From a virus (lineage: Duplodnaviria > Heunggongvirae > Uroviricota > Caudoviricetes), in the IMG/VR virus record IMGVR_UViG_2778261463_000004, positions 1-12,325 of that record: a DNA stretch of 12,325 bases; one strand, 5' to 3'. Below are positions 6,001 to 12,000 of the stretch, one piece after another; within the stretch, counting starts at the first letter, position 1, and each line of letters begins with the position of its first letter. Position numbers: made by a program.

Positions 6001-9000
6001 TCACTGAGGCAGGACAGGCAACCGGACACCCGTTTGACAGCTTTCCCCCTGACATTCGGGCCCGTCAGCACATAGCGTGTATATTTTCCGTGTTTCCCGC
6101 AGGACACCGTCTCAGAACTTTGCACCCAATGCTCACAGCGCCACGGACGCTTTCCGCCACGGACAAATGCCAGTTCCTCTTCCAGGTCAGCCCTGCGGTT
6201 GAGTAACTGCGCTTTGTCGTATTGCATGTGTTGTTTGTTCAGGAAATTAGTCATTTTCACACCCCACAAAATCACCAGTTAAAGTTCGTTGAGCCGTAGT
6301 CCTGCTCACTGAATCCCGAGATCGGGAGGCTTTTGCCCCGCCCACCTCCGGGAGCGGCTGGCTGTTGCCAGAAGTCTTCGAAGTGACGATCGGGGCCAAA
6401 GAACGTCGCAGCCTGCTTCACGAACTGTGTGCCGGTATTTCCTGTCGCACGTACCCAGGCGGCATACCCCTTCACGCCATCAAGCATGGTCTCCGGTTTT
6501 ATTCCCTCCCTGATACGGGCTTTCCAGGCTTTGAAGGCTGCTGACTTGGAATTACCACCAGCACGTTTGGGATATTCCTGCCAGGCCTGTTCAAATTCCG
6601 GTGAATATTCCTGCCGGGCAGAGCGCGCTGGTGCAGACGCGTCAGCGGATGCGCCAATAGTGTTTTTAGTCTCCGTTGTAATCTCTGTAGTAATCTCTGT
6701 ATTTGTATCAACATTCGGCGTATCCCCTGTTCCGTTATGACGTTGGGGGGTGTTCCGTTTTAACGTAATAGCTGTGTCGCTGACTGTGTTATTGCTGTTG
6801 CTTTCTGACGAAACAGAAGAAGGTGTGGTGATGGCAGCAACTGCCTGTGGGTTGATCCCGACAAACAAAATATTGCTGCATTTCACACCATCGAGCATTT
6901 CCACAGTGCGTAAATCCAGGGTAATAAAACCGGCATCCCGCAGACGCTTCAGCGCATCTGCAGTTTCCCTTTTCCCGAAACCAAACTGCTCAGCAAACGC
7001 CTGATAGCTTCTTTGCAGCTTGTCCCCCTGAAAACGCTTGCGATATCCCAGCAAAGCCCCGGTATGCTCATCCCGGACTTCTGTCGGGCGGTACCAATAA
7101 ACGATCTCTGAGAGCAGGGCGATAGCGGTCGCATCCGGACGACCACTGGGTAGCCGAATATGTTTCCACCAGTTCGCTGGTGTGACATTGCCGGAAATAT
7201 TAATCTGCCCAATAGCCATAACTTCCGGTGTGGGGGCGTAACGACTCATACAGCCTCCTTACGCGGCATAACAATGGTGTAACCCCGGGCAGGCTGGAGC
7301 CGGGCTTTTGCATCAATAGTGAGCGTTGCAATTTTACGGATACGCAGATACCCCGCCCTTTCCAGGGCCAGGGTTTCTCTGAACATTGCCTGTTTTGAAC
7401 AGCAACAAAAATCGGCAAGGACCTGGTGATCAATAACCCTCTCACCTTCACCGTCTGAAGAACCCGACATCAAAACACGCAACATAATCAGGCGCTGAAT
7501 CGGATTATCGAAAACACTTCCGCATACAAACTGAAAACAGTTCACACAGCACCTCCCAGGCGTTTAAACATTTTTCCGGACTGAAACGCCACCAGCGGAT
7601 AACTCAGGGTATGAGTACGTCCCTGAACCTGACAGACAACCTTCTGGCTTTCTGTATTGACCAGGCAAACCCGCAGAACGTGGCCGTTGCTGGTGGTGAA
7701 CCACTGCCCCACACGGGGGCAACGGTTGTATCGGTGATACAGGAAATTAACGATGCGGCGAATCATGGATGTACCTCCTGCACATCAGCCATGATCATTT
7801 TGCTGGCTGTTTCCAGCGCCCGGTCGGAGCTAATTTGCATGACAGCCAGTGAATGAGGAACGAAAGCCCCGGCATATTCTGTTTCACTGGTGGCGTGCTT
7901 ATGCGCCCTGTCTGCAATAACAGAGATGTCAATAAGCGCATCCATCAGGGTTTTAATTACCGTAGCGGCCGTCTCTGAATAATGGTTATTACACATGGCG
8001 AGCCTCCCGTTGATTACGACGGAAAGTGGAGTTATTCAGGCTGTTCTCTGCCTCATGGAATGCTTCAAGGCAGCTCTCGTAGTACCGCATTGTGCGTAGA
8101 CTTAACCCAAGCTGAAGCATCATCAGGCCATCAAGGGTGATGTAATAACCACGCAGGGAGTCACCATAGATGTGGTAAGTACCCGGTATAAAGTTGCGGG
8201 TAAAAAATTCGCGCGAGCAGTTCAGATACTCGATTTTGTCGACGATGTTCTGGTGCATGCGCTTAAAGTGGCAGGCAACATGCAGGGAGAAAATAACAGC
8301 TTTGCCGTTGACGACTTCGATTTTGAGGAATGGGGAAGTTGGGACTGTAGCCATGATGGCAGCCTCCTTGATCGGTGAAAAACTTCCACCACCGGAGCTG
8401 CGAAACTCATGGGTGGTGAACTGAACAGGGTTCGCAGTACCGGCGATCAAGGAAACCGGCGAGCCTTTCGGCTCCCCTGCCCAGCCCACCATAATTCTGG
8501 CGTGCATGAGCGCAGACGATAAAAAAGACGCTGGCGCGTCGTATATCGCCTTGATCAATTCCGGGCTGCGACCCCCGGCACCCGCTTTATAAGGTGCTGG
8601 AACAGTGTAACGTCCCGAAATTGCAGAATCAATATTTAGGCTTGAAACATTCATATGCTTACTGGTATTTTTACTAACGCAAATGTTCTTGGATGTTACT
8701 GGCTTACTTCTTTGTGAAGTTGCCTTTACCAACGTTGAGCGAGCCGGGTCACTACCCGGCTTTTTTTCACCGCTGCCAACCAATAACCTGAAATAACCCC
8801 ATTTTCGGGTGATACCAGCGAGTCCCTCGCGGTTCTGCTTCCTCCATTACCCGATAAAAAGCAGCCATAAACGGTTCCACAGCAACAATTGCGCGACGTG
8901 ACAACAATCCGTCCGGCGTCATGAACTCGTGGGTGTCTGTAGGAATTTGATAAGCGTTCACCAGATTGCGGCATTTATCATCTGACAAACCGGTTTTCGC

Positions 9001-12000
9001 TTTCAGTTGGCGATATCCGGCATAGCCCTCACGAATGGTGCCTTTTTTGATTTGCTCAACTGTTTCGGCAACGTGGCTGACTTTTTCTTCCACCTGAGTG
9101 ATCCGTTTCTGTTGGCGAACGGCTTCAAGAGCCATCGCGGCAACCATTTCGATTTCGCTCATTGGCTTACGGATCTGTTCTTCCAGTTCGCGCCAGCGAT
9201 CTACCAGGCGAGCAGTGAATTCAGGACAGAGCTGTGCGACGACAATGATGCTGTCGCGCTTACCTTGTTCACCTTCGAATACATACGCGCTAGAAAATCG
9301 GCGAGGCCCAAGCGATTGTTTATTCTCAATTTCCACAGTCTGTGGAAATTGAATGATTCCCTTTTTAGCCAGTGTTTCAATAGTTCTCTTAACACTATCT
9401 GGTCGGCTTCCCACCAGCTCAGCTATCTCAATACTGGTCATGGATGCTTTGTCGTTAAAAATTGCGGTGTTCATTGTTGGTCTCCTGTGGGCTTGTCATC
9501 CTCTGTGTGCGCTAAGCTTGGATGTGGAAAAAGCTCTGGTAGATCAGGGCGAAATTCATGCGCCTGAATCTTTCCATCTACTGCTGCAACCAATAACGGC
9601 ACAAATTCTGGTGAAATCTTGTTCTTGCAGTTCAACCAATCGCAGACTGTTGACTGGGCCTTTCCGCATCGCTTGGCTAAGGCTTGCTGACTTCCAAGAA
9701 TCTCAATAGCTTTCTCTATGGCTTTATGTTTCATAATCGCATCTCCTATTGAACGCATAATAACAACAGGAAAAGCGATATTCAACGTTAAACCTAGAAC
9801 ATTTATCGGAAAGCCGATAGACTAGCCAAGATAGAGATGGGAGGGAAATCGCAATGACATTTTCAGAACGACTTGATTTAGCTATGCGCAACGCAAAATT
9901 TACGCAAGGTAGGCTGGCCAAAGAAGTGGGTATGGCTCAGTCCAGTGTCAATCAACTACTTAACAAAGCCAACGGTTCCAGAAAAACAGTCGAAATAGCA
10001 AAAGTTTTGGGCGTTAACCCGGAATGGCTCGCATCGGGTGTTGGCCCAATGGAAATCGTGACCTCTGCAGACTCACACCAAATACGTAACATTTCTGAGG
10101 ATTGGGTTACTGATTCGTATGTCGTGGATGTTTTAGACATCAGATATAGTTGCGGACCAGGTAGCTATAACTCTGACTATCCTGATATTGTTAGATCCAT
10201 AGCGATAGAACCAGGATATGCATCAAGAATTTTTGGCGGCAGACCAGCATCAGCAATCAAAGCTATAAATGCCCACGGCGACAGCATGAAAGGCACAATA
10301 AATCCTGAAGATTTGGTGTTTGTAGACATATCAGTTCGCTCATTTAATGGTGATGGTATATACGCTTTTACATACTCTGGAACCTCACACATCAAAAGAC
10401 TTCAAAAAGTCAAAGATACCCTGACGGTGATTTCAGACAATCCAGCCTACAAGGATTGGGCTATCGAGCAGGCTGATTTCGAGCAACTTCACATTGACGG
10501 AAAAGTAATCGTCAGTTGGCCCATGACGCTACACCGTTTCGCATAAACGAAAATCATTTAGCATACCCGCCCGCTGACAAGTGGGCTTTTTTTTAAAAAA
10601 AAATCGATAAACCGATTGACACAACAAATCGGTAAACCTATTATTATGACATAAGTCTCGAACTTACCAAAGCAATTATAGAGGATGAGGAAATGTCAAC
10701 GTATATGGGGTTACCAACAAATCAGCACGATGCTCTTGAAAATATTCAGCTTTTAGTAGGGGCCGGAGCTCTACTGTATAGCAGTAATAACCCGGAGTTA
10801 ATTGAGCTTGCCAGCTCCATCCTAGATGTAACTCAAAAATATAGCCTCAACGCGGCGCGTTCACGCAAACAAAATTTAGCGATTAACTCACAGAACCGAA
10901 TTATCACCCAACGCGAAGCCTGCGGCTTAACAACCGCCGAACTCGCCAGGCTGCTTGATCTCGATGAAGAAATTATCATCCAGTGGGAGAGCGGAGAGTA
11001 CGAACCAACCATCAGCATGCTTATCCCACTGGCTAACGTCCTGGGCTGCGATCCGCTTTCTCTGCTGAGTGAAAACAATACCGCAGTACCTGTTCGCGTA
11101 AATGTGCCAGAAGTCAATGCGGAAAGTATTGGCGCACGCATCGAAAGTGTCCGTAAAAAACTGGGGTTAACCGAATCAGATCTTGCCCGCATGATTCATA
11201 CCTACAGCGACCCTATAAACGACTGGGAATGCGGCATCTGCGAAGTCCCTGCTGATCAGATAGTACCACTGGCCAGCGCGCTTCATTGTGACCCGATGTG
11301 GTTGTTAACGGGTAAACCAACAGATGGGGGTACCTGCGCATGAAAAAGTTCGAAAACATAACCGTTCTCTATGTTGATGAGTTTGATTATGCAAACCAGG
11401 AATTTCTCCCGGAGGTTGTAAAGGCAATAGATGTTGCCGATACAGTGATTAGAGGAAAGAGAATTGTCAAAAACAGACTCGCATGCACTTCCAGGAGCAA
11501 TGACAGAAAAACCTCACAGCAAGATAACTACGAAGGCATTTGTCTGGAGCCTGATTCATTTGCGGTAAATATTTATCATTTATTGCATGCAACACAGGTA
11601 TTACATATGTCCAGTAATTACGAAACGAAAACACTCGGCAGCGAAATTCTGAATTTTGCATGTGAGTATGCAAAAGCTGCTGCCGAAAAAGAATTAGCGC
11701 AATAACATAAATACCCCCTGAACGTTTATTACGGTTTTATCGCCGGGGATTGGTACAACCTTTATTTATAGAGGAAACTCAATTATAACTTTCCTGAGAC
11801 ATAAGGCATCGTACAAAACTGCCTGCCTCATTGCACAACATGGAGATTCTTATTTTCATATAGCTAACCTGTATTTACGCAAAGCATATGGGAGATAAAT
11901 CAATGGAAGAAAAAGAACAAAACATAACACATGAAAAAGTCAGAGTGTTGTTGACCATTGAAAATGGGAAGGTAATTCACTCAAAACATCTGTTGGATAA

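Follow-up and report, generated by a model that had tools for sequence, protein, structure and literature searches.

The window analysed here is the whole of a stretch of 12,325 nucleotides (nt) from a virus of the class Caudoviricetes (IMG/VR record IMGVR_UViG_2778261463_000004), and our subject is the region on its minus strand shortly downstream of a cro-like gene, where the second of two genes for Rha-like proteins opens with a long segment of unusual composition. A preliminary description of the sequence had placed two Rha-like genes directly past cro, and these are indeed present at 8767-9474 and 7989-8354. It had also reported a Gly/Ser/Pro/Ala-rich N-terminal region of about 100 amino acids (aa) in the second open reading frame (ORF), which agrees with our count: these four residues account for 47% of codons 1-100 (8654-8355), versus 19% in the 121-aa part that follows. 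What it overlooked are two RNA genes, IsrK and C4, and it is because both lie in this segment that the encoded N terminus looks so odd. Positions 8355-8640 are a regulatory RNA leader comprising a promoter, both RNAs and the sites that C4 targets, and we consider it probable that 8355-8654 constitutes a module for RNA-based immunity lying within a nested gene, rather than a low-complexity protein domain. The elements of the locus are the following:

8604-8632, minus strand: internal promoter, with -35 TTGATT (8632-8627), a 17-nt spacer and -10 TACACT (8609-8604).
8521-8597, minus strand: IsrK-type RNA, the equivalent of P4 seqA (Rfam RF01394, 57.6 bits, gathering score 50).
8409-8496, minus strand: C4 antisense RNA, the equivalent of P4 CI (Rfam RF01695, 85 bits, gathering score 45, E = 5e-16, model positions 1-87 matched in full).
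8363-8404, minus strand: C4 target region on the mRNA, with sites a2 UUCGCAG (8404-8398) and b2 CGAUCAAGGAGG (8374-8363).
7989-8783, minus strand: long open frame, whose first ATG is at 8654.
7989-8654, minus strand: long nested ORF, 221 aa from ATG 8654, named 'ash family protein' in RefSeq.
7989-8354, minus strand: short nested gene, 121 aa, Rha domain only, starting at the internal ATG 8354.

The long nested ORF thus covers the promoter, both RNAs and the target sites, and continues in the same frame into the short gene. IsrK ends in an intrinsic terminator (8540-8521), and C4 begins just downstream of it. In the predicted fold of IsrK, site a1 UCGCAG (8571-8566) occupies the loop of hairpin 2 and site b1 UGAUCAAGG (8557-8549) is single-stranded; the separate Rfam family c4-a1b1 (RF03163), which is matched in Gifsy-1 and P4, gave no match in the window at E values up to 1. 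Folded alone, C4 adopts the Rfam structure as its minimum free energy (MFE) conformation (-46.6 kcal/mol, z = -5.3): a long outer stem of 17 base pairs (bp) around two hairpins, with segment b' UUUCCUUGAUCG (8455-8444) as the loop of hairpin 2 and segment a' CUGCGAA (8437-8431) in the junction.

To follow these elements across relatives, we collected 80 viral contigs encoding a relative of the 121-aa protein, aligned their 59 distinct leaders, and added the corresponding regions of the Stx2 phage F039, APSE-7, Gifsy-1 and P4; the resulting alignment of 63 sequences is the basis of the conservation and pairing figures below unless another sample is named. All 27 intramolecular pairs of C4 are paired in 100% of cases, and 14 of the 27 show compensatory changes; the CCACC tail at the 3' end is conserved. 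The U-run of the IsrK terminator is invariant, as is an in-frame AUG within C4 (8492-8490) that aligns with the start of Gifsy-1 orf45. The internal promoter, which lies within the long ORF downstream of ATG 8654, has a predicted start site that coincides with the IsrK 5' end at 8597, a call made at the level of sequence, and its -35 TT and -10 TA.A.T positions are invariant or nearly so, P4, Gifsy-1, APSE-7 and F039 included. A consensus promoter scan of the window did not list it, because its -10 falls short of the match rule of the scan; the call rests on position and conservation.

The two RNAs and the mRNA are connected by a network of complementary sites. Segment b' (8455-8444) can pair with b2 (8374-8363) and with b1, and segment a' (8437-8431) with a2 (8404-8398) and a1; site b2 takes in the Shine-Dalgarno sequence AAGGAGG (8369-8363, minus strand) that lies 8 nt ahead of ATG 8354. 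Between C4 a'/b' and mRNA a2/b2, 95.6% of alignment cells are paired and 14 of 19 pairs show compensatory changes, while sliding the partner lowers pairing to 37-46%. Between IsrK a1/b1 and C4, the figures are 96.8% and 13 of 15; over both pairings, shifted partners range from 33 to 68%. In the window itself the 8-mer GATCAAGG occurs at b1 and b2 only, plus its complement in C4, and the 7-mer TTCGCAG has a single extra minus-strand match (11244-11238) that we take as chance. A further helix joins the 3' strand of C4 (8420-8412) to 8393-8385, with 96.8% of cells paired and compensatory changes at five of nine pairs; this pattern suggests that the unprocessed transcript can fold in another way, which would compete with formation of mature C4.

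This conserved pairing accommodates extensive sequence variation. The alignment holds nine variants of a' and 15 of b', in 23 combinations, and the predicted duplex energy is about -36 kcal/mol for cognate partners versus about -24 kcal/mol for non-cognate ones, a difference of some 12 kcal/mol. In some related prophages (our L003, L015 and L061) two or three isrK-C4 cassettes follow one another. Those of L003 (446-2363) are 656 nt apart, with C4 copies at 547-634, 1203-1290 and 1859-1946; each cassette has its own a'/b' pair, that of cassette 1 having the specificity of the window, and the two cassettes checked, 1 and 3, are each followed by a gene for a Rha-like protein of about 120 aa.

The next question is whether the frame that runs across these RNAs is used as a protein-coding sequence. 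Codon-position entropies, computed over 69 relatives, are 0.158, 0.141 and 0.417 in the 121-aa gene, a strong third-position bias, and 0.546, 0.568 and 0.511 in the leader. Since this bias is absent there, the leader is not evolving as a protein. The frame itself is nevertheless free of stops in the 59 relatives and in P4, while the other two frames hold means of 3.1 and 1.0 stops over the 63 aligned sequences. Counted as distinct stop triplets, the three frames of the leader have 0, 20 and 18, and the hypervariable determinants alone have 0, 14 and 12. Leader lengths in relatives are 240, 243 or 246 nt, all multiples of three despite insertions and deletions. An in-frame ATG precedes the -35 box in 69 of 69 relatives, within 45 nt in 56 of them, even though what lies upstream of the promoter is a mosaic of unrelated sequences: several junctions each bring their own in-frame ATG, in some relatives preceded by GGGAGGTG or AAGGAGGTG, and at the start of the long ORF some relatives have a strong Shine-Dalgarno sequence or a directly abutting upstream gene. 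Taken at the level of sequence comparison, these observations argue that the long frame is held open by selection while its amino acids are unconstrained. With a stop-free frame and ATGs supplied from upstream, both a long product, from transcripts that start upstream, and a short one, from ATG 8354, are plausible.

Three phages with the module lack the uninterrupted frame: it stays open for 213 nt in F039 and for 30 nt in APSE-7, and in Gifsy-1 orf45 terminates out of frame. The nested long ORF is therefore not universal to the module; none of the three has an adjoining same-strand gene upstream of the module. In the window, only AGUAAGCAU stands upstream of ATG 8654, which bears out the weak ribosome-binding site reported earlier, and this ATG sits 113 nt past the stop of the upstream gene (8767) and shows no coupling to it. 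The preliminary description had proposed either two isoforms or an mRNA leader, and each idea proves half right: the leader is a regulatory RNA, and the frame through it is also kept open. The strong AAGGAGG site that it assigned to the internal ATG 8354 is there too; the product is 121 aa long, however, and not 119.

The relationship of the two Rha-like proteins to the Rha family needs qualification. Both match Phage_pRha (Pfam PF09669) over the full model, with E values of about 1e-5, yet at 25.6 bits (235-aa protein) and 27.4 bits (121-aa protein) they remain under the curated cut-off of 29.9 bits, and the 121-aa protein reaches 39 bits on TIGR02681, under its cut-off of 45.95 bits. The earlier suggestion of a Rha domain in both thus holds for the matches themselves and falls short for their scores. 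Relatives provide the missing step. The 121-aa protein matches a protein of the Stx phage F039 over residues 1-106 (BLASTP E = 1e-16), and that Rha protein has a Phage_pRha score of 106 bits. For the 235-aa protein, the N-terminal 114 aa show 60% identity to a protein of APSE-7 (E = 3e-47), whose Rha label is a record annotation by similarity to Pfam Phage_pRha. By this transitivity membership of the Rha family holds for both proteins at the sequence level, although their own scores are sub-threshold. A RefSeq homologue of the 235-aa protein is named 'Rha family transcriptional regulator'; the 235-aa protein itself matches PHROG 63, 'anti-repressor Ant' (E = 2e-46). The 121-aa protein falls in PHROG 995 (E = 3e-56). 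A sequence search of the PDB with both proteins returned no useful match.

Two further relationships were considered and rejected. The preliminary description had spoken of a duplicated, variant Rha, but the two proteins have no detectable mutual similarity (BLASTP E = 3), so a recent duplication of one Rha gene is discarded. Nor is the 121-aa protein an orthologue of Gifsy-1 AnrP, an ORF6N protein, to which it compares at E = 0.97.

Current annotation conceals the module. Phage_ASH (Pfam PF10554) matches the long ORF with 59.7 bits, and what it matches is the translated IsrK/C4 region: 8355-8654 in the window, the same observation also covering 1590-2255 in L087 and 8168-8584 in L086. The same model also matches an old 'cI gene product' ORF of P4, and in these cases it matches the translation of an RNA element. 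The RefSeq record that we inspected presents the ORF of the window as 'ash family protein' and carries no non-coding RNA features; that label lies under the match in 12 of 12 Escherichia coli genomes listed, out of 669 genomes matching. Anyone relying on such annotation would miss a regulatory switch that, in Stx-type prophages, separates the lysis-lysogeny genes from those for replication.

The surrounding genes place the module within the cro-side early operon:

9854-10546, plus strand: LexA-like CI repressor (Peptidase_S24), facing the cro-like gene.
9471-9737, minus strand: cro-like gene, by Pfam match (YdaS_toxin/HTH).
8767-9474, minus strand: first Rha/Roi-like gene, an ORF of 235 aa and the last gene of the cro-side early operon ahead of the RNA module.
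3967-7996, minus strand: downstream gene block, in which start and stop codons overlap by 4 to 43 nt.

The stop of the cro-like gene overlaps the ATG of the 235-aa ORF, and the stop of the 121-aa gene overlaps the start of the next gene. The downstream block comprises two small ORFs, a 99-aa ORF, a 325-aa ORF, a DnaC-like loader and a DnaB-like helicase. The last two are identified by Pfam matches to IstB_IS21 and DnaB_C, and the block also includes a PHROG 4617 match. For the 325-aa ORF, phage homologues are annotated as replication protein O, and a Pfam search with the ORF itself gave 0 matches. Any polarity exerted by the RNA module would affect the genes of this block. The nearest E. coli prophages are about 91% identical across 7900-9800.

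Elsewhere the window contains a DNA methylase (N6_N4_Mtase, 1050-2102), a Q antiterminator (2668-3363), RusA (3354-3713) and a 216-aa HTH_3 protein (10693-11343) encoded downstream of CI on the same strand, a set that is typical lambdoid content. Immediately downstream of the Q gene, weak Rfam matches below threshold, 24.5 bits for isrJ and 22.7 bits for isrK, lie at 2580-2652 (minus strand) and end in a strong terminator hairpin; this is probably a short leader transcript of the late promoter. The true isrJ of Gifsy-1 lies downstream of anrP and antQ. Closer to the module, a terminator-like hairpin with a T-rich tail (8295-8309, minus strand) stands 45 nt into the 121-aa coding sequence, and could be due to chance or be a piece of an immunity-dependent termination site like P4 timm. 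On the plus strand, a terminator-like hairpin followed by T7 (8741-8762) lies just past the stop of the 235-aa gene, about 70 nt beyond a promoter-like site (TTGAAA, 18 nt, TATTTT; 8642-8671); together these motifs could specify an antisense RNA of about 90 nt. The hairpin is kept in relatives that share the upstream gene, with a variable A7/A8 length.

How such a module may operate can be proposed by analogy with P1 and P4, and the steps that follow are to be read in that light. In a lysogen, the internal promoter would make IsrK; read-through of the IsrK terminator would yield a precursor from which C4 is cut, RNase P being the releasing enzyme if the analogy applies. C4 would then cover the ribosome-binding site of the 121-aa gene and repress it, with IsrK acting as a second pairing partner or as a competitor of C4. 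The untranslated transcript would end early, so that the downstream genes, replication genes included, would stay off; the tight coupling of overlapping start and stop codons is the reason to expect that they too would be silent. Transcripts from the cro-side promoter differ in carrying ATG 8654. On the model of P4 eta and kil, ribosomes travelling on the long frame over IsrK, C4 and the target sites would block RNA pairing and termination, and for this reason early transcription would be insensitive to the RNA immunity. Transcripts of cro-side origin would give the 221-aa product, and those of the internal promoter the 121-aa product only.

A broader proposal, which we put forward tentatively and judge possible rather than probable, is that in this family of Stx-type lambdoid prophages the IsrK/C4 cassette, next to the replication genes on their upstream side, adds RNA-based immunity as a second layer. 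Its specificity would derive from two independently exchangeable sites (at least nine a variants and at least 15 b variants, 23 combinations among the 63 sequences, and up to three tandem cassettes), and the long 'ash' frame would be kept open solely to let ribosomes on cro-side transcripts override the immunity. Prophages sharing a host would in that case bear an RNA 'address code' that settles which of them can replicate after induction or superinfection. The comparative data amount to a ready natural set of specificity variants, together with an ORF that stays open without amino-acid constraint, and with these at hand the P4-style model in which translation overrides RNA immunity becomes testable in lambdoid phages.

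Other explanations have been considered. According to one, which we regard as unlikely, the leader is purely non-coding: the long ORF would be an accident of a stop-free frame in a GC-rich structured RNA, extended by gene callers, and only the 121-aa protein would be made. The lack of codon-position bias in the leader, the weak ribosome-binding site at ATG 8654 and the interrupted frames of F039, APSE-7 and Gifsy-1 are all as expected on this account, as is the existence of GenBank records that annotate the RNAs and start the coding sequence past C4. It has difficulty with the stop triplets, none of the 38 distinct ones falling in the relevant frame even when the hypervariable determinants are included, with insertions and deletions that leave the leader a multiple of three, and with unrelated junctions that without exception place an in-frame ATG before the promoter, some of them also bringing AAGGAGGTG; translation of P4 eta is moreover reported to be functional in the summary given by PMC10111431. 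A further account sees in the ORF one conventional protein ('ash family protein', 221-264 aa), with disorder in its N-terminal domain and a Rha domain at the C terminus, and takes the RNA matches as incidental. This account follows the annotation of RefSeq and of many phage records, and Phage_ASH and several PHROG families do match the N-terminal part of the protein. We find it highly improbable. Both RNA families exceed their curated thresholds, at three places RNA pairing is kept by compensatory changes that alter the encoded residues, third-codon-position bias is absent, and the supposed domain holds a conserved promoter and an intrinsic terminator. The Phage_ASH match itself extends to the old P4 'cI gene product' ORF, and the P4 repressor is the CI RNA in the literature.

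An explanation of another kind is drawn from Gifsy-1, and to us seems rather doubtful in the window: the short IsrK would activate in trans and remodel the read-through RNA, translation would start at AUG 8492, and C4 would not be a repressor. As the orf45 frame is fused here to the Rha-like gene, a 167-aa isoform would result. This AUG is the invariant one that is shared, in the same frame, with the start of orf45, whose translation and activation by IsrK were established by experiment in Gifsy-1 (PMC4825925), and the MFE fold of the read-through RNA pairs the IsrK and C4 regions, like 'structure A' of Gifsy-1. Yet AUG 8492 has no Shine-Dalgarno sequence and forms part of the 17-bp outer stem of C4, a stop follows it after 15 codons in APSE-7, and the strongest co-variation links C4 to the Shine-Dalgarno sequence of ATG 8354, the hallmark of repression in P1 and P4. 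Activation of this kind is compatible with an immunity module in a nested gene, and the two are not exclusive.

Several points weigh against our own preference for a nested gene that houses an RNA-based immunity module. The locus has been read from its sequence alone. The promoter is a consensus-level call, with a weak -10 (TACACT) and no place in the scan results. Computed folding of the full read-through RNA yields two competing arrangements, the MFE pairing IsrK with C4 and the centroid pairing C4 with the Shine-Dalgarno region. Relatedness and recombination among the sequences make the stop-triplet events less than fully independent. Three module-bearing phages, F039, APSE-7 and Gifsy-1, have an interrupted frame. 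P4 eta is coupled to its upstream gene, whereas ATG 8654 has a poor ribosome-binding site behind a 113-nt gap. In Gifsy-1, finally, it is the short IsrK that activates, and a repressor role of STnc1160, the stable RNA found at the C4 position, was not demonstrated there (PMC4825925).

Set against known systems, the module is a P4-type IsrK/C4 element in an 'ash/eta-like' ORF, fused to a short Rha domain and carried by a lambdoid prophage. Such a system is already known, and the anomaly of leader and composition is fully covered by the known RNA immunity biology of P4, P1 and Gifsy-1. For P4 we took the mechanism from PMC10111431 and PMC3632133 and checked the geometry on the P4 sequence. The latter paper equates IsrK/C4 with seqA/CI and notes IsrK-C4 systems in lambdoid Salmonella prophages; the former counts Phage_ASH among the Pfam models of a 'Bro network' and describes CI as encoded inside such a gene. 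Its summary of Forti et al. 1999 treats eta and kil as long and short nested genes: full-length Eta is translated from the upstream promoter only, and its translation blocks termination, while the truncated form, Kil, is translated on read-through only. On the P4 sequence both RNA families score above their thresholds, with the Rfam isrK match at 8692-8615; upstream of it begins a 197-codon frame (ATG 8761) whose start abuts the upstream gene and within which a 65-aa ORF (ATG 8365) is nested.

The P4 immunity region (PLE promoter, seqA, CI RNA, seqC, eta, kil) has its parts in the same order as the window: ATG of the long ORF, promoter, isrK/seqA, C4/CI, target with Shine-Dalgarno sequence, and in-frame ATG of the short ORF. 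The spacing of about 55 nt from C4/CI to the gene start is shared as well. Each module is part of an operon that receives transcription from a promoter further upstream, and Phage_ASH matches the N-terminal parts of both long ORFs. The differences are that the short product is the 65-aa Kil in P4 and a 121-aa Rha-domain protein in the window; that P4 is a satellite, whereas the window belongs to a lambdoid prophage with a CI/Cro switch; that the long-ORF start in the window is uncoupled from the upstream gene by the 113-nt gap; and that the stretch of leader from seqA to CI has 84 nt more in P4.

In Gifsy-1, read-through of the IsrK terminator gives the long form, an inactive mRNA (Hershko-Shalev et al. 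2016, PMC4825925). The short IsrK acts as an activator of both orf45 and anrP translation, and the locus has an effect on prophage induction; a C4-like RNA lies at the position of orf45, equated by the authors with STnc1160 (PMC4825925). The window shares with Gifsy-1 an IsrK and a C4-type RNA, identically ordered and spaced, that precede a Bro-network gene, and a C4 loop complementary to both the GGAGG of that gene and IsrK. In Gifsy-1, however, the TGA of orf45 overlaps the anrP ATG out of frame, whereas the frame of the window runs into the gene; AnrP is an ORF6N protein without detectable similarity to the 121-aa protein; and the module stands downstream of Q, where that of the window belongs to the cro-side operon. 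The separate orf45 and the AnrP orthologue of a Gifsy-1-type operon are accordingly both absent from the window.

The c4-icd-ant operon of the P1/P7 immI region offers the third comparison. Citron and Schuster 1990 reportedly found that an antisense RNA is cut there from the same transcript and exposes segments a' and b', which pair with upstream a1/b1 and with downstream a2/b2 overlapping the ribosome-binding site, and specificity differences reportedly lead to heteroimmunity. The window resembles the P1 arrangement in having two exposed antisense segments, paired sites up- and downstream, and an overlapped ribosome-binding site. It differs in lacking an icd-like small gene past C4, the regulated gene following after only 54 nt, and in that the regulated protein is not an Ant homologue, the P1 sequence being outside this comparison. 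The basic finding on P1 c4 antisense RNA is described in outline in PMC7313666, and the original work is cited in PMC2864571.

Two other phages carry annotated isrK and C4 non-coding RNAs with the same spacing of about 55 nt as the window, ahead of a Rha-domain gene in the Stx2 phage F039 and of a Bro-N gene in APSE-7; both differ from the window in that the frame over the RNAs is interrupted and no co-oriented gene adjoins upstream. Among the better-studied systems, the 121-aa gene holds the position that kil holds in P4, anrP in Gifsy-1 and ant in P1.

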